Shown piece by piece: positions 21,368 through 33,800 of a DNA stretch of 64,000 nt (position 1 is its first letter; the number at the start of each line of letters is the position of its first letter). The notes beneath the pieces are model-generated. The model saw only the letters and a program-made list of their open reading frames with translations, was not told the DNA's origin and searched no databases. The translations under genes and the position numbers were made by a program. Source of the DNA: Rhodospirillaceae bacterium (lineage in GTDB: Bacteria > Pseudomonadota > Alphaproteobacteria > CACIAM-22H2); assembly GCA_027490975.1 (NCBI GenBank), contig JAIXXA010000145.1:5723-69722 (forward strand), written 5' to 3'.

Positions 21368-22618
21368 ATGGACACAGTCAACCAACGCACCGACGAGGAA
21401 GCGCTGCTTTCCGATCTCGACCGCATCAAGCGGACGGGAAACACTGTGCCGCGCATGGCCGTCGTCATATCGATGCAGCGCCAAGCATGGTTCAATCGGC
21501 GGCGCGAGAATTTCTACGTGATCTTCCATGCGATCCGCGAAATGGTCCAGCGGGCCGAAGGGACCGTGTATTCGCAGGCCAATTTCGACATCGTCTTCGT
21601 TTTCCGCGTCGACAACCCGCAGCAGTTCGAAAACATCGTGACCGAGCTCGACGAGCTCTTGCGCCGCCATTCGGTTGCGACTGGCATGCCGGACGAAAAC
21701 ATCGAAGAAGCCTGCACCTGGTTCAGCTTCGAAACGCAGTTCAACGATTTCTACGACTACGCCAAGCGGGCGCTGGAAGACCAGAAGAGCCAGCAAGAGC
21801 AGCGCCAGCGCGCCGCCCAGCGGGCCGCAGGTGCCGCGCAGCAGGGCGGCATCGGCCCAGTGTTCCAGCCTTTCACGCCTGCAATTCTGAGCACGTTCGA
21901 CGAGCTCATTGCCAAGACCGACGTTAAATCGCTCGTGCGCAACCAACCGATCGCGATAGCGCTCACGGCCAACCAGCTGCGCCCGATTTTCCGCGAGTAC
22001 CATTTTTCGGTCAACGATCTGCGCAACATGATCGTGCCGCGCGTCAATATGCGCGGCCAGCGCGGCCTGTTCCAGATTCTGTCGCGCAGCTTCGACCAGC
22101 GCATGCTGCGCGCGCTTTCCGAGGGGTTCCTCACGAAGGCTGCGGGCAACATCTCGATCAATCTCAATGTCGAGACGATCCTGTCGGACCGGTTCCGCGA
22201 ATTCGACCAGCGCATCCCCAATTTCATTCCCAAGGGCAGCATCATCGTCGAGATTCCGCGCCACGACGTGTTTGCGGATTTCGAGGGCTACAATCGCGCC
22301 CTCGACACGCTGCAGAAATCCGGCTTCCGCACGCTGCTCGACGGTCTCACGCCCGATACGCTGACCTTCTTCCGGCGCGCCGAATTGCGCGCCGATCTCG
22401 TCAAGATGTTCTTCTACAAAGACCATGCTGAAGACTGGCGCATGAAGGGGCTGGCCGCGATGCTGGCCGAGGCGGACATCAACCGCATCATCATGGGGCG
22501 CTGCGAAACGCCCATGGCCTTCGAACTCGGCCAGGCGGTCGGCATTCGCATGTTCCAAGGCTGGCATGTCGACGCTCTTCTGCGCGCGATGACGCCGGCC
22601 ACACCGCCTGGCCGCTGA
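21368..22618 (+). CDS. Protein with unknown N-terminal domain and a degenerate EAL-like C-terminal domain
   Basis: EAL-fold landmarks retained (ISINLNV, Lys, final Q in MFQGW) but DDFGTGYSS replaced by DGLTPDTLT and other metal ligands lost. Confidence 0.5.
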   Translation: MDTVNQRTDEEALLSDLDRIKRTGNTVPRMAVVISMQRQAWFNRRRENFYVIFHAIREMVQRAEGTVYSQANFDIVFVFRVDNPQQFENIVTELDELLRRHSVATGMPDENIEEACTWFSFETQFNDFYDYAKRALEDQKSQQEQRQRAAQRAAGAAQQGGIGPVFQPFTPAILSTFDELIAKTDVKSLVRNQPIAIALTANQLRPIFREYHFSVNDLRNMIVPRVNMRGQRGLFQILSRSFDQRMLRALSEGFLTKAAGNISINLNVETILSDRFREFDQRIPNFIPKGSIIVEIPRHDVFADFEGYNRALDTLQKSGFRTLLDGLTPDTLTFFRRAELRADLVKMFFYKDHAEDWRMKGLAAMLAEADINRIIMGRCETPMAFELGQAVGIRMFQGWHVDALLRAMTPATPPGR

Positions 22619-22632
22619 GCGGCCGAGCGCCG

Positions 22633-23778
22633 ATGCGCCTTCGCGACCTGCCAACGCCCTGCCTCGTGCTCGACCGCGCGCGCCTCAAGCGCAACGTTGC
22701 CCGCATGCGCGACCGTGCCCGCGAACTCGGCGTCGCGCTGCGCCCGCATCTCAAGACCGCGAAGTCGGTCGACGTCGCCTTGCTCGTGCATGGCGGCACG
22801 CCCGGCCCGATCACGGTTTCGACGCTTGCGGAAGCGGCGCATTTCGCGGCCGCGGGTTTCGCCGACATTCTCTACGCCGTGGGCATCGTTCCCGCGAAGC
22901 TCGCGCGCGTTGCAGCAATGATGGCGCAAGCGCCTTCCCTCAAGATCGTCCTCGACGAAATCGACACGGCGCGCGCGGTGGTGGCCCAGGGGCGCGCACT
23001 TGGATGCCGCTTCAACGTCGCGATCGAAATCGACACGGGCGGCGGGCGCGCCGGCATTGCCCCCGACGATCCGGCGCTTGTCGAGATCGGTGCCGTGTTG
23101 AGCGGCGCCGGCATGCTCGCGGGCGTGATGGCGCATGCGGGCCATTCCTACGGCTGTAAGAGCCTCGACGAAATCGTCGAGGTCGCCGAGGCCGAACGCG
23201 TCGGCGTCGTCGCCGCTGCCGAACGGCTGCGCGCGGCCGGCTGTGCGGTCGGGCTTGTCAGCGTCGGTTCGACGCCGACGGCGCTGCATGCGCGCCATCT
23301 CGAAGGTGTGGGCGAAATGCGGCCCGGCAATTTCGTGTTTTTCGACCTGTTCCAGCACGGGCTCGGCATGTGTGCGGCCGAAGACGTCGCGGTGAGCGTG
23401 CTCGCAAGCGTGATCGGCCACCACAAAGGCCGCAACCATGTGCTGCTCGATGCGGGCGCGCTAGCCCTGTCGAAAGACGTCGGGGCGAACGCGGTCACGC
23501 CGCAGATCGGCTACGGCCTTGTGCGTGCGCCGGCCGAGGCCGCGCCACGGGCGGACGTGGCCGTGCTCGACGTGCACCAGGAGCACGGCATCGTCAGTGC
23601 GCGCAAAGGGCTCGACGCGATCGCCCCGCTGCCCTTCGGGGATTTTGCGATCGGCGACCGGCTGCTCGTCTTGCCCAATCACGTGTGCATGACGGCCGCC
23701 ATGCACGATCGCTATTACGTGGTCGAAGGGCTCGACGACACGATCGTGGCTGAATGGCCGCGCATCGCGGGCTGGTAG
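22633..23778 (+). CDS. PLP-dependent DSD1/alanine-racemase-N family enzyme (D-serine dehydratase / D-threonine aldolase-like)
   Basis: PLP-lysine motif (RPHLKTAKS), barrel plus C-terminal beta-domain. Confidence 0.75.
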   Translation: MRLRDLPTPCLVLDRARLKRNVARMRDRARELGVALRPHLKTAKSVDVALLVHGGTPGPITVSTLAEAAHFAAAGFADILYAVGIVPAKLARVAAMMAQAPSLKIVLDEIDTARAVVAQGRALGCRFNVAIEIDTGGGRAGIAPDDPALVEIGAVLSGAGMLAGVMAHAGHSYGCKSLDEIVEVAEAERVGVVAAAERLRAAGCAVGLVSVGSTPTALHARHLEGVGEMRPGNFVFFDLFQHGLGMCAAEDVAVSVLASVIGHHKGRNHVLLDAGALALSKDVGANAVTPQIGYGLVRAPAEAAPRADVAVLDVHQEHGIVSARKGLDAIAPLPFGDFAIGDRLLVLPNHVCMTAAMHDRYYVVEGLDDTIVAEWPRIAGW

Positions 23779-23779
23779 T

Positions 23780-25126
23780 TCAGAACGGATATTTCGGATT
23801 GAACAGCAGCGTTCGCGCTTTGGCGTCGTCGCGCAAAGCGCCGTGCAGGCCGCGCTCCGAATCGTGGGCGCCCTTGCGGATCGCCGCTGCAAGTGCCCGA
23901 TTGCCGTCGCCTTGGTTGCGCGGCTCGAGCGCCAGCGTACGCGCCACAATGCCGAGCGCATTGGCGAGCATCAGCCCTTTGAGGCGCGCGCCCTCGGCCA
24001 TCTGCTGCAGGAGTTCGCCCGTCAGCACGTCGCGCGCAAGGGCGGCGAGCTCGGCAGCGTCCGCGCGGTCGTGCGGCAGGCCCGGCGGCAGTTCGCCCGC
24101 GGGCGCGTGTGCGTCGATTGCGGCGAGCAATTCGTATTCAAGCTCGGCAATGCGCCGTCCGGTCAAAGCCAGATCGAGCGAAGCTTCGCCCCCGGCCACG
24201 AAGCGTTCGTTCTGCTGGAGGGCGATCACCGCCCAGCGCGCATGCGCCATGATCTCCCAATAGCGCAGTTTTGCGGGATCGATCGCGCCGCCGCCTGCAC
24301 CTCCATAGCCGCGCAGAAAATCCTCGCGCGCACCAATGCCACCCGCCTCGCGCGCAACCTGGCCGAAACGCCAGCATTTTGCGCAGAACCACCCGATATC
24401 CTCGTGCCGGTCGCCCCAGCCCGCGAACTCCCAATCGAGAATGCCCGCCAGGCCCGTTTCGTCGGCCATGAAATTGCCGGTGCGAAAGTCGCGATGGCAC
24501 AGAACCAGCGTGTCGGTCGTGGGCGCATTGACCTCGAGCCAGCGCAATGCCAGCTCGAGGGCGGGGCGCGCCACACGATAGCCGTCGAGCCATGTGCGAT
24601 AGGCTGCGACCGCAGCCAATGCCGGCGACGCGGGCGGCGCGTCCAAGAAGCCGAGGGCTGCTTGCGGCGGTCGGATCTTGTGCAGCTTGGCCAGTTCGTT
24701 GCCGAGGCTTGCAACCAACGCCGAACGGTCGCCGGTCCATTTGGCGTCGTTGACGAGAATATGGCCGAGTGCGGTGCCCTCGAGCCGCCGCATCACGTAG
24801 AAGGGTTTGCCGATCACGCTCGGATCGGCGCACACGGCAAGCGGTTCGGGCACTTTGACGCCGGCTTTGTGCGCGGCATCGAGAATCGCGTATTCGGCAA
24901 GGCGGCCGTGGCTTGCCGCGACACCTGTGGGCGCGTCGGTGCGCAAGACGGCGTCGAGCGTGCCGGCATGAGGTCCGCCGCGCAGGCGCGCTTGGAACGC
25001 CCAGTTTTCCTGGATCGCACCGCCCGACAATTGCCGCCACGCCAGAACCTGGACCTGGGCAGCACCGAGAGCGCTCACAAGCCAACCCGCCAGTCCCGGC
25101 GGGGCCGCATGCGCGTTCAGCGCCAT
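23780..25126 (-). CDS. APH/CHK-family phosphotransferase (LvaA-like)
   Basis: Kinase Brenner motif HRDFRTGNF, DWE motif; start at MALNAHAAPP overlapping the ACAD stop. Confidence 0.8.
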   Translation of the reverse strand: MALNAHAAPPGLAGWLVSALGAAQVQVLAWRQLSGGAIQENWAFQARLRGGPHAGTLDAVLRTDAPTGVAASHGRLAEYAILDAAHKAGVKVPEPLAVCADPSVIGKPFYVMRRLEGTALGHILVNDAKWTGDRSALVASLGNELAKLHKIRPPQAALGFLDAPPASPALAAVAAYRTWLDGYRVARPALELALRWLEVNAPTTDTLVLCHRDFRTGNFMADETGLAGILDWEFAGWGDRHEDIGWFCAKCWRFGQVAREAGGIGAREDFLRGYGGAGGGAIDPAKLRYWEIMAHARWAVIALQQNERFVAGGEASLDLALTGRRIAELEYELLAAIDAHAPAGELPPGLPHDRADAAELAALARDVLTGELLQQMAEGARLKGLMLANALGIVARTLALEPRNQGDGNRALAAAIRKGAHDSERGLHGALRDDAKARTLLFNPKYPF

Positions 25127-26313
25127 CCCCAGAACTCCGTGCCCTCGTTCGCAAGGAAGCGCGCCAGCACCATCTTGTGCACTTCGGAAGCGCCGTCCAC
25201 GAGGCGCGCCTGGCGCGCATAGCGGTACATCCATTCGAGCGGCGTGTCCTTGGAGTAGCCACGCGCGCCCATAAGCTGGATCGCCGTATCGATCGATTTG
25301 TGCAGCACGTCGGCGACCGCGACCTTGGCCATCGACACCTCCTTGCGCGCGAAATCGCCCTGGTCGAGCTTCCAGGCCGCACGCATCGTGAGCAGGCGGC
25401 CGATCTCGATCTGCATGGCGGCTTCGCCCAGCATCCACTGCACGCCTTCGTGGTCGATCAGGTTGTGGCCGAAGCTCTTGCGCGCCTTCACGTAGGGCAA
25501 CGCGATCTCGAGTGCGCGGCGCGCCATGCCGAGCCAGCGCATGCAGTGCGTAAGGCGCGCAGGGCCCAAACGGATCTGCGTGACCTTGAGCCCGTCGCCG
25601 ACCTCCATGAGCCGGTCGGCATCGTCGATCTCGAGCCCGTCGAATTCGATCTCGCAATGCCCGCCGTGTTCTTCGGGGCCCATGATCGGGATGCGTCGCT
25701 TGATGCGCCAGCCCGGCTGGTCGGCATGGAAAAGGAAAGCGCTGAGGCCCTTGCGCGCATCCTTCGAGGTGCGCGCGATCAGGATGAAATGTTTCGCCTC
25801 GCCCGCCCCGGTGATGAACCATTTGCGGCCCGAAATGCGCCATGTGTTGCGCCGCTTGGTGGCGGTCGTCAGCATCATGCCGGGATCCGAGCCGGAGCCC
25901 GGATCGGGCTCGGTCATCGCAAAGGCCGAGCGCACGTCGCCGTTGGCGATGGGTGCGAGCCATTTTTTCTGCTGGGCGATAGTCGCGACTTTCGCCAGCA
26001 CCATCATGTTGCCGTCGTCGGGGGCGGCCGAGTTGAAACAAACCGGCCCGAACAAAGCGCGGCCCATCTCCTCGTAGCACGCGGCCATGCCGACCATGTC
26101 GAGCCCGCCGCCGCCATGGGCAGCAGGCAATTGCAGCGACCACAGCTTCGCCTTCTTGGCCTTGTTGCGCAGCTTTGCGAGCGTGTCGAGGCGCACGTTT
26201 TCGCCGTCGCCCCAACTCGCAAGATCGGCTTCGGCCGGGAACAATTCGCGCTCGACGAAGGCACGTACCGCAAGGCGCGTGCGCTCCGCCTTCGGCGACA
26301 GCGTGAAATCCAT
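25117..26313 (-). CDS. Acyl-CoA dehydrogenase family protein (LvaC-like)
   Basis: ACAD N/M/C domains (FAMTEPDPGSGSD; C-terminal helical domain). Confidence 0.85.
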   Translation of the reverse strand: MDFTLSPKAERTRLAVRAFVERELFPAEADLASWGDGENVRLDTLAKLRNKAKKAKLWSLQLPAAHGGGGLDMVGMAACYEEMGRALFGPVCFNSAAPDDGNMMVLAKVATIAQQKKWLAPIANGDVRSAFAMTEPDPGSGSDPGMMLTTATKRRNTWRISGRKWFITGAGEAKHFILIARTSKDARKGLSAFLFHADQPGWRIKRRIPIMGPEEHGGHCEIEFDGLEIDDADRLMEVGDGLKVTQIRLGPARLTHCMRWLGMARRALEIALPYVKARKSFGHNLIDHEGVQWMLGEAAMQIEIGRLLTMRAAWKLDQGDFARKEVSMAKVAVADVLHKSIDTAIQLMGARGYSKDTPLEWMYRYARQARLVDGASEVHKMVLARFLANEGTEFWGWR

Positions 26314-26324
26314 GGGGGCGGCTC

Positions 26325-26969
26325 TCAGGGTTTGAAGAACGGCGCGTTGACGAGCAGCTGCACGTCCATGCGCTGCAACAGCGGCGTGCCGCGCTTGAGA
26401 TAGTCGCCCCAGGCCGGATCGGCCGCCATCGCGGCGCGCTTGGCTTGGCGCTCGCCCATGTCCTTGTAGCCCCACATATGCAGAACCTGGTTGAGACCGC
26501 CAATGTCCGACTGGTACCAGCCCACGCAATTGCCGAGATATTTGAGCTGCAGCTGCAGCGCCATGTCGCGATAGACGGCAAGGAACTCCGGCAGCTTGCT
26601 GTGGTGGGCGGTGTAGACGCGGAAATCGAGCACGCCGTAGCTGCCCGAAGGCTGACCCGCGATCGGCCAGAACGGGGCGGGCTTCATGATGCGGTTTTCC
26701 TGCGAGATGAAGGTGCCCGCCGATTTGCCGAGCCACGCCGCCCAAGCAGGATCGGCCTGCATCGCGTCGCGTTTGGCTTGGCGCTCGGCAATGTCCTTGT
26801 AGCCCCAAATATGGATCGCCGTGTTCATGGCGCCGATTTCCACGCCGTAATAGCCGAGCGGATTGCCAAGATGGCGCTTCTGCACCTCGAACCCTTCGGC
26901 CGCGTAGCCTACAAAATAACCCGGCAGCTTGCCGGGCTGGGCCGTGTAGCTGCGCACATCGACGATCAT
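26325..26969 (-). CDS. Tandem NIPSNAP-domain protein
   Basis: Two repeats of the HIWGYKD…ERQAKR…ADPAW pattern. Confidence 0.7.
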   Translation of the reverse strand: MIVDVRSYTAQPGKLPGYFVGYAAEGFEVQKRHLGNPLGYYGVEIGAMNTAIHIWGYKDIAERQAKRDAMQADPAWAAWLGKSAGTFISQENRIMKPAPFWPIAGQPSGSYGVLDFRVYTAHHSKLPEFLAVYRDMALQLQLKYLGNCVGWYQSDIGGLNQVLHMWGYKDMGERQAKRAAMAADPAWGDYLKRGTPLLQRMDVQLLVNAPFFKP

Positions 26970-26986
26970 GGAACCCGCTCCGTCCT

Positions 26987-27751
26987 CTAGAGAAAAGCCA
27001 ACGTATGGCCGCCATCGACGACGAGCGTGGTCCCCGTCATGAAGCGGCCCGCATCCGATGCCAACAGCAGCAAGGCGCCGTCGAGATCGCTCGCCTGGCC
27101 GAAGCGGCCAAGGGCAATGCGCTCGACCAACCTAGCACCTGCGGCAGAGCGCAGATAGTCGCGGTTGAGATCGGTTTCGATATAGCCGGGTGCGATCGCG
27201 TTCACGCGGATTCCATGCGGCGCGTAAGCCAATGCCAGCGACTGGGTGAGGCTCACGATCGCGGCCTTTGCAGCCGAATAAGCGGGGACGCGCACGCTCG
27301 GGCGCAAGCCGAGGATCGACGCGATATTGACGATGGCGCCGCCCTTGCCCTGCGCGCGCATAATGGCGGCGGCGTTGCGCGCAACCAGATTCGCACCGTC
27401 GAGATTGGTCGCCATCGTGTCGCGCCAGCCCGCATCGTCGGCGATGTCGGGCGATTCCTTGCGCACGATGCCGGCATTGTTGACGCAGATGTCGAGCGCC
27501 CCAAGTTCTGTCTGGGCGCGCGCAAAACCCTGGGCCACGCTCGCCGCATCGGTCACGTCCATGGCGACGGCAAGGGCGCGCCCGTCGAAAGCCGCGATCT
27601 CGGCGCACAGGCTTTCGAGCCGGTCGACGCGGCGGGCGGCCACCGCCACTTTCGCACCGGCGCGCGCAAGCGTGACGGCCATCGACCGGCCGAGCCCCGA
27701 CGAAGCGCCCGTCACGAGGGCGGTCTTGTCCGACAGATCGAACGGGCCCAT
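26987..27751 (-). CDS. SDR-family oxidoreductase (LvaD-like)
   Basis: TGASSGLG cofactor motif, NNAG, YSAAK catalytic motif; ATGA overlap with upstream synthetase. Confidence 0.85.
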   Translation of the reverse strand: MGPFDLSDKTALVTGASSGLGRSMAVTLARAGAKVAVAARRVDRLESLCAEIAAFDGRALAVAMDVTDAASVAQGFARAQTELGALDICVNNAGIVRKESPDIADDAGWRDTMATNLDGANLVARNAAAIMRAQGKGGAIVNIASILGLRPSVRVPAYSAAKAAIVSLTQSLALAYAPHGIRVNAIAPGYIETDLNRDYLRSAAGARLVERIALGRFGQASDLDGALLLLASDAGRFMTGTTLVVDGGHTLAFL

Positions 27752-29391
27752 CAGCCAATCTCCTGCGCGCGTTGGCGCAAAACGAATTTCTGGATCTTGC
27801 CGGTCGAGGTTTTGGGCAAGGCGCCAAACACGACATAGCGCGGGCACTTGAAGCCCGCAATGCGCCCGCGCAGCCAGGCGATGATCTCAGGCCCCGAAAT
27901 GCCGACCGCGTCGGGCTTGAGGGCCACAAACGCGCACGGCGTTTCGCCCCATTTGGGATCGGGTTTGGCGACGACGGCCGCTTCCATCACCGCCGGATGG
28001 CGATAGAGCGCTTCTTCGACCTCGAGCGAGGAGATGTTTTCGCCGCCCGAGATGATGATGTCCTTGCTGCGGTCTTTGACCTCGATATAGCCGTCCTTGT
28101 GGCGCACGGCGAGGTCGCCCGTGCGGAACCAGCCGTTTTTGAAGGCGCGCTTCGTGGCTTTGGGGTTCTTGAGATAGCCTTTCATCACGGTGTTGCCCTT
28201 GAGGGCGATTTCGCCGAGCGTCGCCCCGTCCGACGGCACCGGGCTTCCTGTTTCGACGTCGAGTACGGCGAGTTCGCCCAAGGTCGGATAGGCCACACCC
28301 TGGCGCGACATGAGGCGCGCACGCTCTTCGAGCGGCAGATCGGGCCAGCCCGGCTGCCATTCGCACAAGGTGGCCGGACCGTAGCTTTCGGTAAGGCCGT
28401 AGGCGTGCGTCACGCGAAAGCCGAGTTCTTCCATCGCCGCAATGATGGCCGAGGGCGGGGCTGCCCCACCCGTCATCACCTCCACGCGATGCGGCAATTT
28501 GCGGCGCAGATTCGCCGGCGCATGGGCAAGCGTGTTCAGCACGATGGGGGCGCCGCACATATGCGTGACGGCGTTTGCCGCGATCGACGCGAAAATGGCA
28601 CCCGGCTCCACCTTGCGCAGGCACACATGCGTGCCGCCGACCGACGTAACCGCCCACGTATAGGACCAGCCCGAGCAATGGAACATCGGCAAGGTCCACA
28701 GATACACGCTCTCGGGCCTGAGTCCGAAGGTCAGTGCATTGCCGAGCGCGTTCAGGAATGCGCCGCGATGGTGGTAGACGACCCCCTTGGGATCGCCCGT
28801 GGTGCCGGACGTGTAGAGCAGGCAGATCGCCTGCCATTCGTCGGAAGGCCAGCGGCCGGCATAATCGGGCGTGCCTTCGGCCAAAAACGATTCGTAGTCG
28901 AGCGCCGACAGACGCGGCCCCTCGCCCGTATAGGCGCGGTCGTCGATGTCGATGACCGTCGGCTTGCTTTTGCAAAGCGCCAAAGCCGCCTGAAGCGTGG
29001 CGGCAAATTCGCGATCGGCGAGCACGAATTTGGCTTCGCCATGGTCGAGGATGAAGGCGATCGTCGCGGCATCGAGCCGGTAGTTCAGCGCGTTCAGCAC
29101 GCCGCCTGCGAGCGGCACGGCGTAATGCGCTTCGAGCATGGCCGGGATGTTGGGCGCAAGGATTGCCACCGTCTGGCCCTGCTTCAAGCCGCGCCTCACC
29201 AGCGCATGGGCAAAACAGCGCACGCGCGCCGCGAAGCGCGCATAGCTGGTGCGCGTCTCCCCGTGCACGATCGCGGTCTTGGTCGGATAGACCGCCGCCG
29301 CGCGGAACAGGAATCCGAGCGGCGTGAGGGCCGCGAAATTGGCCGCCGTCTGGGGCAGATCGGTTTCGAAGATCGAGCGCTTTGGCGCCAT
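27751..29391 (-). CDS. Acyl-CoA synthetase, AMP-binding (LvaE-like)
   Basis: AMP motif YTSGTTGDPKGV, TGD and SGGENI motifs, terminal K; start at MAPKRSIFE. Confidence 0.85.
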   Translation of the reverse strand: MAPKRSIFETDLPQTAANFAALTPLGFLFRAAAVYPTKTAIVHGETRTSYARFAARVRCFAHALVRRGLKQGQTVAILAPNIPAMLEAHYAVPLAGGVLNALNYRLDAATIAFILDHGEAKFVLADREFAATLQAALALCKSKPTVIDIDDRAYTGEGPRLSALDYESFLAEGTPDYAGRWPSDEWQAICLLYTSGTTGDPKGVVYHHRGAFLNALGNALTFGLRPESVYLWTLPMFHCSGWSYTWAVTSVGGTHVCLRKVEPGAIFASIAANAVTHMCGAPIVLNTLAHAPANLRRKLPHRVEVMTGGAAPPSAIIAAMEELGFRVTHAYGLTESYGPATLCEWQPGWPDLPLEERARLMSRQGVAYPTLGELAVLDVETGSPVPSDGATLGEIALKGNTVMKGYLKNPKATKRAFKNGWFRTGDLAVRHKDGYIEVKDRSKDIIISGGENISSLEVEEALYRHPAVMEAAVVAKPDPKWGETPCAFVALKPDAVGISGPEIIAWLRGRIAGFKCPRYVVFGALPKTSTGKIQKFVLRQRAQEIG

Positions 29392-29467
29392 TGGCATTTC
29401 CCTCCCTGCCCCATTCTCGGGAACCGCCCCTAGCCGCGTCAATGGCGACGATGCTACACTGCATTTC

Positions 29468-30097
29468 ATGATCCGCATCGACATCGTCTCCGACGTGATC
29501 TGCCCCTGGTGCTTCATCGGCAAGCGCCGCCTCGAACGCGCTTTGGCCGCCGAAGCGCCGGGCAGCATCGTCGTGGGCTGGCGCCCCTTCCAGCTCAATC
29601 CCGACATGCCGGTCGAGGGCATGTCGCGCAAAGACTATCTGCGCGCCAAATTCGGCACCGACGACGGCGGCGAGCGCTACAAGCACGTGGTCGCCGCCGG
29701 CCTCGAAGAAGGCATTCCGTTTGCGTTCGAGCGCATGCAGCGCACGCCCAACACCGTGCGCGCCCATCGCCTGATACGCTTTGCGGAACGCTTCGGCGCT
29801 GCCGATGCGACTGTCGAAGCCTTGTTCGTGGCATATTTCGCAGGCGCGCGCGACGTGGGCGATCTCGACGTGCTCGTCGATGTCGCAGGCTCGGCCGGGC
29901 TCGATGCAAGCGAAGCGCGCCGCTATCTTGCCTCCGACGAAGACGACGCGCTGATCCGCGCGGAAGACAAGTACGCGCGCGAACTCGGCATCCAGGGCGT
30001 GCCGTGTTTCGTCATCGAGCGCAAATACATGGTCTCGGGCGCGCAGCCCGCCGAATTGTTCGCCGACGTGTTCCGCCAGGTGCGCGAAGCGGCCTGA
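29468..30097 (+). CDS. DsbA-family thiol oxidoreductase (FrnE/HCCA-isomerase-like)
   Basis: N-terminal CPWC thioredoxin motif. Confidence 0.75.
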   Translation: MIRIDIVSDVICPWCFIGKRRLERALAAEAPGSIVVGWRPFQLNPDMPVEGMSRKDYLRAKFGTDDGGERYKHVVAAGLEEGIPFAFERMQRTPNTVRAHRLIRFAERFGAADATVEALFVAYFAGARDVGDLDVLVDVAGSAGLDASEARRYLASDEDDALIRAEDKYARELGIQGVPCFVIERKYMVSGAQPAELFADVFRQVREAA

Positions 30098-30104
30098 CGC
30101 GTCC

Positions 30105-30806
30105 ATGGCTTGTTCCTGCCTGTCGCGACGCGTTTTCCTGCGCGGCCTTTGCGCCGCCGCCGCAACACCGCTTGTCGCGCCTCCCGCAGCCGCCCAAATG
30201 CGCGAATGTTTCGGCGCGCCCGCGCGCTTCGTGGTACGCACGAAGCCGCTTGGGGCGGCCGTCGACTATTCGCTGCAGGTGGCCGATCTTGCGCGCGTCG
30301 CGGGCGCGCGCGAAGGGCTGTTCGGCACGCGCACGCAGCACGGCCAGCGTCCGGCCGGCCTCACGCTCGCCGACATCAAACTCGATTGGAGTGTGGGCGT
30401 CGTGGCGCGCGGCCAGGGGCGCCAAGCCTGCATCGAGCCCGAACGCGTCGAGGTCACAGTGTCGATGGATCGCCATCGCATCTACGTAGCGCGCGATGCA
30501 ACGCGCTCGGGCACGTGCCAGCGCGACGTGGTGCTCGAACACGAAAGCCGCCATGTGCGCATCAATCTCGACCTGCTCGAGGATGCCAAGCAGCGCATCG
30601 AACGCAGCTTGGCCGATCTCGTGCCGCAGCTCGGGCCCACCGACGGCGGGCGCGAAGTTGCCAATGCCGCGCTCGCCCGCTACCGCGCGATATTGCGCAA
30701 ACCCATCGAAGGCGGTTTCGAGCGCGCTTTTGCCACGGCGAATGCGCGCCATGCCGAGATGGACACGGCTCAAGCCTATGCGCGCGACTGGGGCCGCTGT
30801 GCCTGA
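30105..30806 (+). CDS. Tat-signal secreted protein with HExxH motif (DUF922-like putative Zn-metallopeptidase)
   Basis: SRRVFLRGLCAAAA twin-arginine signal; LEHESRHV HExxH motif. Confidence 0.45.
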   Translation: MACSCLSRRVFLRGLCAAAATPLVAPPAAAQMRECFGAPARFVVRTKPLGAAVDYSLQVADLARVAGAREGLFGTRTQHGQRPAGLTLADIKLDWSVGVVARGQGRQACIEPERVEVTVSMDRHRIYVARDATRSGTCQRDVVLEHESRHVRINLDLLEDAKQRIERSLADLVPQLGPTDGGREVANAALARYRAILRKPIEGGFERAFATANARHAEMDTAQAYARDWGRCA

Positions 30807-30809
30807 GCG

Positions 30810-33800
30810 TCAGGCCGCGATCTTGGCGAGTTCGCCGAGCAGGCGGCGAATGCCTTTGACGCGGTCGCCCGCATCGTCCCAGGCACGCAAGTACACAAGC
30901 CGATGGTCGGGGCGCAGTTTTAGCAAAGTCGGCTGCTTGAACACCATCTGGATCAGCTTGTCGGGGTTCGCAAATTTGTTCTTGCGGAAGCCCAGCACGG
31001 TGCCCTTGGGCCCCGCATCGACCTTGTCCACACCCGCAAGCTTGCACAGCCGCTTGAGTTCGATGATGTCGAGAAGGTTCTGCACCTCGCTCGGCAATGG
31101 CCCGAAACGGTCGATGAGCTCGGCCGCAAACGCGTCGATCTCGCTGCGTTCGACGAGGCCCGACAGACGGCGATAGAGGCCCAAGCGCACATTGAGGTCG
31201 CGCACATAGTCTTCCGGGATCAGCACCGGCGTGCCGAGCCCGATCTGGGGCGCCCATTCCTCCGCCCCCTGCTTGGGACCGGCCGTGCGGGCGGCGCGCA
31301 CGGCGTCTTCAAGCATCTGCTGGTAAAGCTCGCCGCCGACCTCGCGGATATGGCCGGACTGTTCTTGGCCCAGAAGATTGCCCGCCCCGCGAATGTCGAG
31401 ATCGTAAGAGGCGAGCTGGAAACCAGCTCCGAGACTGTCGAGCGTTTGCATCACTTCGAGGCGCTTCTGGGCACCGGCCGTCAGCACGCGATCGCCGGGC
31501 ACGGTGAAATAAGCGTAAGCGCGCAGCTTGCCGCGCCCGACGCGCCCGCGCAGCTGGTAGAGCTGGGCAAGGCCGAACATGTCGGCGCGATGGATGATCA
31601 TCGTATTGGCACTCGGGATGTCGAGGCCGCTTTCGATGATGTTGGTGGACAAGAGAATGTCGAAGCGGCCTTCGACGAAACCGACCATCACGTCTTCGAT
31701 CTGGGCGGGCGTGAGCTGGCCGTGGGCCACGGCGAGTTTGCATTCAGGGACAAGCTGAACGAGCCGTTCGCGCACGGCGCCCAGATCCTCGATGCGCGGA
31801 ACCACGTAGAACGTCTGCCCGCCGCGGAATTTCTCGCGCATGATCGCTTCGCGGATCACGACCGGATCGAACGGCAGGATGAAGCTGCGCACCGCCAAGC
31901 GGTCGACCGGCGGGCTTGCGATCAGCGACAGGTCGCGCACGCCCGCAAGCGCCATCTGCAAGGTGCGCGGGATCGGCGTCGCCGAGAGCGTGAGCACGTG
32001 CACGTCGGCGCGCAGCTCTTTGAGGCGTTCTTTCTGCGCCACGCCGAAATGCTGCTCCTCGTCCACGATCACGAGGCCGAGCTGCTTGAACTTGACCGCT
32101 TTGGCGAGCAGCGCCGTGGTGCCGACTACGATCTCGACGTGGCCGGCTTCCGCATCGATGCGCGTCTGCGCTTGGTCCTTGGCGGGGACGAGGCGCGAAA
32201 GCTGGGCCACGCGCACGGGGAAGCCATCGAAGCGCGCTTTGAAATTGCGGTAGTGCTGGCGCGCGAGCAGCGTTGTGGGCACCACGACCGCGACCTGCAC
32301 GCCCGCCATGGCAGCGACAAACGCCGCGCGCAACGCGACTTCGGTTTTGCCGAAACCGACGTCGCCGCACACAAGCCGGTCCATCGGCTTTCCGGCGGCG
32401 AGATCGTCGAGCGTTTCCACGATCGCGCGCGCCTGGTCCTCGGTTTCGACGAAGGGGAAGCGCGCGCAGAATTCGTCGAACAGGCCTTCGGCGGGCGCCA
32501 GACGCTCGCCCTCGCGCAACTGGCGTTCGGCCGCGAGCTTGATGAGGTGGTCGGCGATTTCGAGCACGCGCTTTTTGACGCGCGCCTTGCGCGCCTGCCA
32601 GCCTGCCCCGCCGAGCTTGTCGAGCTGCGCGCCGGCATCCTCCGAGCCGTAGCGCGACAGCATCTCGATGTTTTCGACAGGCACAAAGAGCTTGTCGTTG
32701 TCGGCATAGACAATGCGCACGCAATCGTGCGGCGCCCCGGCCACTTCGATCGTCACAAGCCCGTCGTAGCGGCCGATCCCGTGGTCGACATGCACGACGA
32801 GATCGCCCTCGCCGAGGGCCGCCGCCTCGGTCAGGAAATTGTCGGAGCGCCGCCGCTTGCGCGCCGCGCGCACCAGCCGATCGCCGAGAATGTCCTGTTC
32901 GGTGATCGCGGCAAGGTCGGGCGTGGTGAAACCGTTGTCGAGCGACAGGACGGTCGTTGCCACGATCTGCGGCGCCAGCTTTTCCGCCTCCGCCCAGTCG
33001 CGCACGACCGCCGTTTCGGTGAGGCCATGTTCTTTCAGGAGATGCGCAAGTCGTTCGCGCGAGCCCGGCGAATAGGCGCAGACCAGCACGCGGCGGCCGG
33101 CCGCGCGCTCCGCCGCCACGCGCACGCGCACGGCGTCGAACAGATTGGCGTCCGCCTTGGCGCGTTCGGACGTAAAATCCACGCCCGTGCGCCCGCCCGC
33201 ATCGATGCAGTCGGCCCCCACGGGGCGCGCAAATGGTGTGAGCGCAACAACCGCGCGCTTGGCCAGGATGCCGCGCCATTCGCTCGGCTTCAGATAAAGC
33301 AATTCGTTCGGCAGCGGATTGTAGCTTGAGGCGGCCTCGCCGAACTGGTCGGCGGCCTTGCCTTTGGCGAAAGCTTGGCGCGCGAGCACGCGCGCCTCGT
33401 AGAACTCGTCGATCTGTTCGAAGCGCGCGGCGGCCGCCTCGTCGATCTGGTCGTCGAGCGAGACGACCGCGTTGGGCAGATAGTCGAACAGCGTCTCGAG
33501 TCCGTTGTGGAACAAGGGCAGCCAATGTTCGAGGCCCGCATAGCGCTGGCCCGCCGACACGGCCGCGTAGAGCGCGTCGCGCGCATCGACGGCCCCGAAC
33601 TGGGCGCGGTAGCCCAAACGGAAATTCTCGATCGAATCCGGATCGAGCAGCACTTCGCTGACGGGCTTGAGCGCGAACGCATCGAGCGTGCCGGTACTTT
33701 TCTGCGTCATCGGATCGAACCGGCGGATCTGCTCGATCGCGTCGCCGAACAGGTCGAGCCGCACAGGCTCGGCCAAGCCCGGCGGGAAAAGATCGACGAT

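Follow-up and report, generated by a model that had tools for sequence, protein, structure and literature searches.

A NIPSNAP-containing lva-type operon with a predicted LvaA-LvaB fusion kinase in an alphaproteobacterium

Introduction

The 64-kb stretch of Rhodospirillaceae DNA considered here (the whole stretch is referred to as the window, and all coordinates are given in its numbering) contains five co-directional genes on the minus strand, at 23780-29397. According to Pfam and NCBIfam scans, these genes code for an acyl-CoA synthetase, a short-chain dehydrogenase/reductase (SDR), a NIPSNAP protein, an acyl-CoA dehydrogenase (ACAD) and a kinase of the APH family. The question raised by this locus is whether the five proteins act together on 4-oxo and 4-hydroxy carboxylic acids in the manner of the Lva proteins of Pseudomonas putida, as a preliminary description of the DNA had proposed, and how a NIPSNAP protein would fit into such a pathway. 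We consider it probable, at roughly 0.8, that the operon specifies a complete Lva-type pathway by which these acids are fed into beta-oxidation. This reading draws on features observed in the window and in related loci, namely the gene content, the homology to the Lva proteins, the active-site signatures, the joining of two proteins in one polypeptide and the conservation of the cluster. The pathway as such is already known, from P. putida since 2017 and from mammalian ACAD10 and ACAD11 since 2024-2025, and the operon adds no new chemistry. Apparently new are the joining of LvaA and LvaB, the placement of LvaB in the DUF6285 family and the conserved insertion of a NIPSNAP gene.

Homology to the lva operon

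The operon lvaR-lvaA-lvaB-lvaC-lvaD-lvaE-lvaF-lvaG on the P. aeruginosa plasmid p12939-PER (L005) served as the reference and stands in for the proteins of P. putida KT2440. Searching plasmid records by tblastn with the window kinase had led to P. aeruginosa plasmids whose adjacent gene bears the annotation '4-hydroxypentanoyl-CoA kinase subunit LvaB'. The genes on p12939-PER encode, in this order, a prpR-type regulator, the kinase, LvaB, an ACAD, an SDR, a synthetase, a DUF485 protein and a cation/acetate symporter, a layout that matches the seven-gene lva operon plus LvaR of KT2440 as given in PMC6692424. In BLASTP comparisons with the plasmid-encoded proteins, the window synthetase is 59.9% identical to LvaE over 539 residues, the SDR 51.0% to LvaD over 251 residues and the ACAD 41.1% to LvaC over 392 residues. 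The kinase aligns with two proteins, that is, with LvaA through residues 12-342 (50.5% identity over 331 residues, 318 bits) and with LvaB through residues 356-445 (34% identity over 111 residues). When the search was reversed, each of LvaA to LvaE matched the 64-kb window once, and always inside the operon (tblastn). This reciprocal comparison, which gives one specific counterpart per Lva protein, supports the initial proposal that the gene contents mirror lvaABCDE. Moreover, one NCBIfam model, NF006020 (cut-off 677), matches both the synthetase (848.6 bits) and LvaE (856.4 bits), the SDR and LvaD have their two best NCBIfam models in common (NF005402 and NF005559), and the SDR sequence contains the TGxxxGxG and YxxxK motifs. 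Taken at the level of sequence, these comparisons support the view that the operon is a true homologue of the lva pathway and not a look-alike.

While homologues of the CoA ligase, the SDR, the kinase, the LvaB/DUF6285 subunit and the ACAD-fold phosphate eliminase are common to both operons, that of the window differs from its P. putida counterpart in several respects. The gene order is the reverse of lvaABCDE (E-D-C-A/B, with the NIPSNAP gene between D and C), as had already been noticed in the preliminary description. LvaA and LvaB are separate proteins in P. putida and form one polypeptide in the window, where an additional tandem NIPSNAP gene also follows the lvaD-like gene and precedes the lvaC-like one. 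The P. putida operon is accompanied by the sigma-54 regulator LvaR and the uptake genes for LvaF and LvaG, whereas no match to LvaR, LvaF or LvaG was found in the whole 64-kb window (tblastn, E <= 1e-3); the earlier remark that no LvaR-type regulator lies adjacent thus holds for the entire window. In contrast to the plasmid-borne lva copy, the locus is chromosomal and adjoins mfd and a DSBA-family gene. Its designation as an uncharacterised alphaproteobacterial variant is fair, but alphaproteobacterial homologues of lvaABCD are already on record, since PMC6692424, citing Rand et al. 2017, mentions such homologues in Alpha-, Beta- and Gammaproteobacteria. Because these homologues had been noted, and because bacterial orthologues from Burkholderia have already been assayed, the assignment of the pathway is in itself unsurprising.

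The closest named relative is a metagenome-assembled genome (MAG) of Telmatospirillum sp. (Rhodospirillales), whose kinase is 91% identical to that of the window and in which the five genes, the divergent DSBA gene and the convergent neighbour are all present as well. The cluster is also present in at least 10 other alphaproteobacterial contigs, and it is found in contigs with kinases 65-75% identical to the window protein. Because the cluster recurs in Telmatospirillum and in these other contigs, the five genes are real and their arrangement is not a product of chance open reading frames.

The ACAD and its active-site signature

The elimination of the phosphate is carried out by a particular subgroup of ACAD-fold enzymes. 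An upstream Arg, an HCMR motif and a catalytic Asp in place of the usual Glu are conserved only in the homologues of ACAD10 and ACAD11 and in LvaC, and in mouse ACAD11 the residues R626, H634, R637 and D753 accommodate the 4-phosphate, HCMR being essential for activity (PMC12440821). The window ACAD has the corresponding signature R-x7-HCMR (RLGPARLTHCMR), followed 125 residues later by DGASEVH, with the same spacing as in LvaC, and it is the only ACAD of the window in which R-x7-HCMR is combined with the catalytic Asp (DGxxEVH). A motif scan of the window and nine loci found the signature once each in the window and in L001-L007, LvaC included; the ACAD in question is always located beside a kinase gene where a kinase exists, L007 being without one. 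Among solved structures, the window ACAD matches 4hr3 best, with 226.9 bits, followed by ACAD11 with 221-225 bits, compared with 166 bits for the best ordinary ACAD, and the plasmid LvaC gives the same four top matches in the PDB. Because of R-x7-HCMR, the catalytic Asp and the matches to ACAD11 and 4hr3, the window protein can be placed, by its predicted residues, in the phosphate-eliminating ACAD subgroup, and the likeness to ACAD10 and ACAD11 proposed in the preliminary description is upheld.

The resemblance to the mammalian enzymes extends from the ACAD signature to the kinase, in which the beta3 Arg, the alphaC Glu, the HxD..N catalytic loop and the DWE motif are alike, and ACAD11 is among the best solved-structure matches of both the window kinase and the window ACAD. 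However, kinase and ACAD form one chain in ACAD10 and ACAD11, whereas they are encoded by two genes with a 10-nucleotide overlap in the window, and the ACAD11 kinase domain is only distantly related to the window kinase (~49 bits). In addition, the ACAD11 alignment leaves no room for an LvaB/DUF6285 domain, as its ACAD domain starts ~30 residues past the kinase match. In contrast to ACAD10/ACAD11, a HAD domain is lacking here.

The kinase and its C-terminal LvaB-like domain

Seven positions of the kinase, R62, E78, D213, N218 and D231-W232-E233, are invariant in 40 homologues and correspond to the residues that are essential in ACAD10/11-type kinases (PMC12440821, PMC13596139). The preliminary description had the NIPSNAP protein replacing LvaB, which is wrong, since LvaB is present as the C-terminal DUF6285 domain of the kinase and the NIPSNAP protein is additional to it. 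This domain, which the first reading had overlooked, gives a weak Pfam match in the full-length kinase; when the last 113 residues are scanned alone, they match PF19802 with 33.8 bits (cut-off 28.1), and the plasmid LvaB matches the same model with 85.3 bits. The homologues of the kinase fall into two length classes, ~445 residues with DUF6285 and ~340 residues without, and in the unfused relatives a gene for a DUF6285 protein of 106-109 residues overlaps or abuts the kinase stop codon. Such a separate gene was found in L001, on the P0140 contig, on Massilia and Thermus plasmids and at seven genome loci, where the identity to LvaB is up to 50%. Because of the DUF6285 scores, the two length classes and the separate downstream gene in relatives, the window kinase is best read as a natural fusion of LvaA and LvaB.

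This reading agrees with PMC6692424, according to which LvaB, a protein of 12 kDa, was recovered with LvaA in a pull-down and growth on levulinate requires both. The reference used for LvaB in the present comparison is the annotated plasmid copy and not the KT2440 protein. None of the NCBIfam hidden Markov models matches it, and for this reason its label probably stems from a BLAST rule for high identity. In a confident AlphaFold2 model of the fusion protein (mean predicted local distance difference test score, pLDDT, 87.3; predicted template modelling score 0.85 for the whole chain), the C-terminal domain consists of four helices at residues 357-442. A fold search with this model returned generic neighbours with the APH fold (25-hydroxysteroid kinase, Rv3168 and 3dxp) that do not discriminate between functions; a PDB search with the C-terminal region gave nothing meaningful, and a literature search for DUF6285 returned no paper.

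Two types of unfused alphaproteobacterial cluster are found in the same neighbourhood, with a divergent DSBA gene and near mfd, and have the same proteins and ACAD signature as the window, with LvaB as a separate protein of 106-109 residues. In L001 the order is SDR-ACAD-APH-DUF6285, without synthetase and NIPSNAP, and in P0140 it is synthetase-SDR-NIPSNAP-ACAD-APH-DUF6285. Compared with these clusters, the predicted fusion in the window shows itself as a derived state within the NIPSNAP-containing clade. A natural fusion would mark LvaB as a structural module integral to the kinase; it provides a Rosetta-stone argument for LvaA and LvaB forming one enzyme, and a single-chain construct would be handy for structural work. 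The Pseudomonas LvaB is a member of DUF6285, a family labelled as being of unknown function.

Proposed pathway and alternative explanations

The chemistry of the pathway can be carried over, by analogy, from the Lva enzymes of P. putida and from mammalian ACAD10 and ACAD11. The LvaE-like synthetase would convert the acid to its acyl-CoA, after which the LvaD-like SDR would reduce a 4-oxoacyl-CoA, for example levulinyl-CoA, to the 4-hydroxyacyl-CoA. Next, the LvaA-LvaB fusion kinase would phosphorylate the 4-hydroxyl group with ATP, and the flavoenzyme of the LvaC/ACAD10-11 type would eliminate the phosphate in an FAD-dependent reaction that is redox-neutral overall. The resulting 2-enoyl-CoA (or 3-hydroxyacyl-CoA) would then enter ordinary beta-oxidation as the fifth step. 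As a first guess based on sequence, the substrate may be levulinate or 4-hydroxyvalerate, in view of the 60% identity between the synthetase and LvaE. The operon is a compact, regulator-free cassette of five genes that could be tried for the conversion of levulinate or gamma-valerolactone.

Several points weigh against this reading. With neither LvaR nor the LvaFG transporter in the window, the induction and uptake of levulinate are unsupported, and at only 41% identity to LvaC the ACAD may differ in substrate range. The five genes are not an obligate unit, because half-operons exist, consisting of synthetase-SDR-NIPSNAP in L008, L018, L055, L068 and L070 and of NIPSNAP-ACAD-kinase-LvaB in L049 and L072. 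Nor is the wider kinase family restricted to 4-hydroxyacyl-CoA, since ACAD10-type kinase domains, bacterial ones included, phosphorylate 1-O-alkylglycerols (PMC13596139, a 2026 preprint). It is possible, although we give it clearly less than an even chance, that the same mechanism serves another substrate, namely medium- or long-chain 4-hydroxy or 4-oxo acids such as those derived from gamma-lactones, or products of lipid peroxidation such as 4-hydroxynonanoate, the DSBA-family protein and the NIPSNAP protein being part of a detoxification role. The lack of LvaR and of the acetate-type symporter LvaFG would be consistent with such a substrate, as would the higher score against ACAD11 of the window ACAD (~225 bits) than of the plasmid LvaC (~198 bits) and the activity of ACAD10 and ACAD11 beyond valerate, with C6 assayed and C8 modelled (PMC12440821). 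An SDR-kinase-LvaB-ACAD module of Massilia is embedded in a large beta-oxidation cluster, and the DSBA gene is conserved as the divergent neighbour, but this adjacency may reflect no more than the common descent of a single chromosomal region near mfd. The 60% identity of the synthetase to LvaE and its membership of the same NCBIfam subfamily argue for the short-chain acids instead; Rand and colleagues are said to have found in 2017 that LvaE acts on short acids.

That the kinase acts on a different hydroxylated lipid, such as a 1-O-alkylglycerol or a hydroxysteroid, and that the operon belongs to a different lipid pathway, is very improbable. Although bacterial homologues of the ACAD10 kinase phosphorylated chimyl alcohol (PMC13596139), the best PDB sequence match of the window kinase is 9o56, which we infer to be the Caldalkalibacillus thermarum kinase of that preprint, and 25-hydroxysteroid kinase is among the best structural matches, the scores of ~60 bits to 9o56 and ~49 bits to ACAD11 stand against 318 bits and 50% identity to LvaA. 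Furthermore, the kinase carries the LvaB subunit, and its gene overlaps by 10 nucleotides that of an ACAD with the phosphate-binding HCMR pocket, to which it would be translationally coupled, and is in one operon with homologues of LvaE and LvaD. Even less credible is an ordinary beta-oxidation operon located beside an aminoglycoside or macrolide phosphotransferase, an arrangement to which the Pfam matches, giving only the generic APH and ACAD families, could otherwise be reconciled. The kinase scores 45.8 and 23.3 bits against the APH(3') models NF033068 and NF032898 (cut-offs 205 and 360, respectively), the ACAD scores 113 and 87 bits against the FadE models NF058590 and NF052270 (cut-off 600 for each), and its catalytic position is occupied by Asp and not by the Glu of FadE-type enzymes. 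The preliminary description had named a clustering of the two proteins with aminoglycoside kinases or FadE as the outcome that would speak against it, and these scores do not bear it out. Together with the 10-nucleotide overlap of the kinase and ACAD genes, the model scores, active-site residues and context exclude a resistance kinase beside plain beta-oxidation.

The tandem NIPSNAP protein

The NIPSNAP protein matches PF07978 above the Pfam gathering score and has no counterpart among the proteins of the L005 lva operon (BLASTP). Each of its halves resembles solved, single-domain bacterial NIPSNAP proteins that are uncharacterised. The family includes the solved bacterial proteins 2ap6, 1vqs and 5k9f as well as the eukaryotic mitochondrial NIPSNAP1 and NIPSNAP2, from which the window protein differs in having two fused domains and in its setting in an operon for the catabolism of CoA esters. 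The fold neighbours of the predicted structure (pLDDT 93.9), a fused dimeric alpha+beta barrel, are NIPSNAP domains, ABM-type proteins with tandem domains, and oxygenases and isomerases that need no cofactor, with no specific enzyme among them. Literature searches for NIPSNAP in connection with acyl-CoA, levulinic acid, ACAD10 or bacterial function found nothing relevant, and in the literature searched no biochemical function of any bacterial NIPSNAP was found.

In a wider survey with one genome per species, 80 NIPSNAP loci were obtained, and these were compared by tblastn with the window proteins. Neighbours of the lva type are present at 20 of these and absent from the other 60; an HCMR-type ACAD lies beside the NIPSNAP gene at 13/80, and a kinase gene is present at 12/80. 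All of the lva-linked NIPSNAPs in this survey are alphaproteobacterial, and distant tandem NIPSNAPs of Dehalococcoidia and Rokubacteria occur without lva genes. In Geminicoccaceae and part of the Rhodospirillales, the corresponding position is taken by a single-domain NIPSNAP. Judged from these sequences, the NIPSNAP protein thus appears to be an accessory that the alphaproteobacterial lva system has long kept in a central position.

What this accessory does is a matter for tentative proposals. It is conceivable, at odds well short of even, that the gene is a passenger inherited with the locus and has no role in the pathway, as could be the case given that the lva-linked copies are solely alphaproteobacterial, that the Pseudomonas operon and the Massilia and L001 clusters work, or at least exist, without a NIPSNAP, and that three quarters of the loci surveyed (60/80) have no lva genes. 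Its location is less easily reconciled with a mere passenger: the gene is inside the operon, separated from its neighbours by 17 and 11 nucleotides, its slot is kept, with tandem or single domain, where the kinase is only 46-54% identical (Geminicoccaceae, Rhodospirillales), and it stays with either surviving half of the operon, be it synthetase-SDR-NIPSNAP or NIPSNAP-ACAD-kinase. A specific function in the alphaproteobacterial catabolism of 4-oxo and 4-hydroxyacyl-CoA, as a cofactor-free isomerase or epimerase or as a carrier that prevents lactonisation of the labile 4-hydroxyacyl-CoA before the kinase acts, is in our view a rather long shot. As a low-confidence guess, we picture the protein as handling a ligand, or as resembling an isomerase that works without a cofactor, with one of the labile 4-oxo or 4-hydroxyacyl-CoA intermediates as its target. 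Eukaryotic NIPSNAPs are mitochondrial proteins. ACAD10, too, is a mitochondrial enzyme, acting on 4-hydroxyacyl-CoA (PMC12440821), and because both are mitochondrial, a place of NIPSNAP in the operon would, if true, be the first biochemical lead for this conserved family. Because a NIPSNAP protein is regularly part of the alphaproteobacterial cluster, this widespread family, which has mitochondrial homologues, gains a defined setting in which ideas on its function can be tested.

Operon structure and neighbouring genes

The positions of the genes and of the features around them are given in Table 1. As the DNA has ~65% G+C, it contains many spurious long open reading frames, and a filter based on the G+C content of third codon positions failed to separate these from real genes; because gene calling on this basis did not discriminate, the gene models rest on Pfam matches and homologues.

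Table 1. Features of the lva-type operon and its immediate surroundings in the window
Feature	Position	Strand	Description
LvaE-like acyl-CoA synthetase	27751-29397	-	548 residues; Pfam AMP-binding and AMP-binding_C
LvaD-like SDR	26987-27751	-	254 residues; Pfam adh_short, 191.9 bits
Tandem NIPSNAP protein	26325-26969	-	214 residues; two PF07978 domains, ~1-103 and 113-211
LvaC/ACAD10-11-type ACAD	25117-26313	-	398 residues; all three ACAD domains
Predicted LvaA-LvaB fusion kinase, APH family (whole gene)	23780-25126	-	448 residues
LvaA-like kinase domain, residues 1-342	24101-25126	-	PF01636 (APH), 141.7 bits
LvaB-like DUF6285 domain, residues ~356-448	23780-24061 (including stop codon)	-	PF19802
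Candidate sigma-70-like promoter	29413-29442	-	TTGACG, 18-nucleotide spacer, GAGAAT
DSBA-family gene, divergent	29468-30097	+	209 residues; PF01323, 145.6 bits
D-Ser-dehydratase/D-Thr-aldolase-like gene, convergent	22633-23778	+	Ala_racemase_N and D-ser_dehydrat

The five-gene set is as previously described; the end then given, 29391, corresponds to an alternative ATG of the synthetase gene that would yield a protein of 546 residues, the length annotated in the Telmatospirillum relative. The earlier statement that all junctions are tight or overlapping is likewise accurate (-1, 17, 11 and -10 nucleotides), although the synthetase/SDR junction reads TGATG in the sequence, with an overlap of 1 nucleotide, and is not the 4-nucleotide ATGA overlap that had been reported. 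The spacer between the SDR and NIPSNAP genes contains GGAG, and the 10-nucleotide overlap between the ACAD and kinase genes (ATGGCGCTGA), which are in different frames, was correctly identified. The stop codons of the kinase gene and the convergent D-Ser-dehydratase-type gene are 1 nucleotide apart, and the divergent spacer between the synthetase and DSBA genes measures 70-76 nucleotides.

The promoter candidate, which lies in this spacer and is read from 29442 to 29413, is the sole promoter-like site in the region 22500-31000, a count that is uninformative as 1.1 such sites are expected by chance. In the equivalent divergent spacer of five loci, CATTGAC is invariant and the -10 hexamer varies. 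Position and the conserved TTGAC are suggestive of the operon promoter, and the site is retained as a candidate only. Terminator-like sites are at chance level (7 found versus 7.9 expected). A single transcription unit would extend from ~29442 to 23780 on the minus strand.

The genes in the vicinity code for the DSBA-family protein, a 233-residue protein that is unknown, Mfd, the D-Ser-dehydratase-like protein and an EAL protein. In nearly all alphaproteobacterial relatives, a DSBA gene is transcribed away from the operon across a short spacer. This holds for L001-L003, L007, L008 and 13 of the genome loci, and L010-L014, L018, L022, L046, L055, L068, L070 and L083 also have this arrangement. 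The adjacency could be due to functional coupling or just to shared synteny near mfd.

Variants of the locus in other genomes

The NIPSNAP gene is the component common to both types of half-operon, and L076 also has the NIPSNAP-ACAD-kinase-LvaB arrangement without a synthetase. In L008 and L018, which are without ACAD and kinase, the D-Ser-dehydratase-like gene abuts the NIPSNAP gene directly. Members of the same D-Ser-dehydratase-like family are found just downstream of unrelated tandem NIPSNAPs in L028 (8249-10567) and ~14 other Dehalococcoidia loci; in L028 the gene follows those for an Asp/Glu racemase and an Abhydrolase_3 esterase. A degraded version of the cluster is present in L007 (6217-9619), in which the SDR is split into two open reading frames and the HCMR-type ACAD is kept, followed by a nitroreductase instead of the kinase, and in which inserted genes set the synthetase apart from the other lva-type genes. 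In L022 (5045-7687), two tandem SDR copies are present, together with a further single-domain NIPSNAP that precedes the tandem one; this variant may bear on how the two enantiomers of 4-hydroxy acids are handled.

Among plasmid-borne kinases, the closest (61% identical) is encoded in a large beta-oxidation-like cluster on a Massilia putida plasmid (L006, NZ_CP019037.1, 2695-14915). The genes in this cluster code for three ACADs, the third of the HCMR type, followed by an SDR, the kinase, a DUF6285 protein, a thiolase, an adenylating enzyme, an enoyl-CoA hydratase, a MaoC dehydratase and more ACADs, which suggests that modules of the Lva type are integrated into a variety of fatty-acid pathways. 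A fused kinase with 67% identity (P0027) is labelled as originating from the cyanobacterium Halotia wernerae UHCC 0503, whereas all other close relatives are alphaproteobacterial; it may come from a contig of a contaminating heterotroph in the Halotia assembly. Lastly, a second, unrelated APH-family gene is located in L002 (14288-16766), ~6 kb away from and outside the lva-type cluster, beside genes for an NTP-transferase and a histidine phosphatase, and with the NTP-transferase it forms a pair that we take to resemble the AmgK/MurU pair of peptidoglycan recycling.

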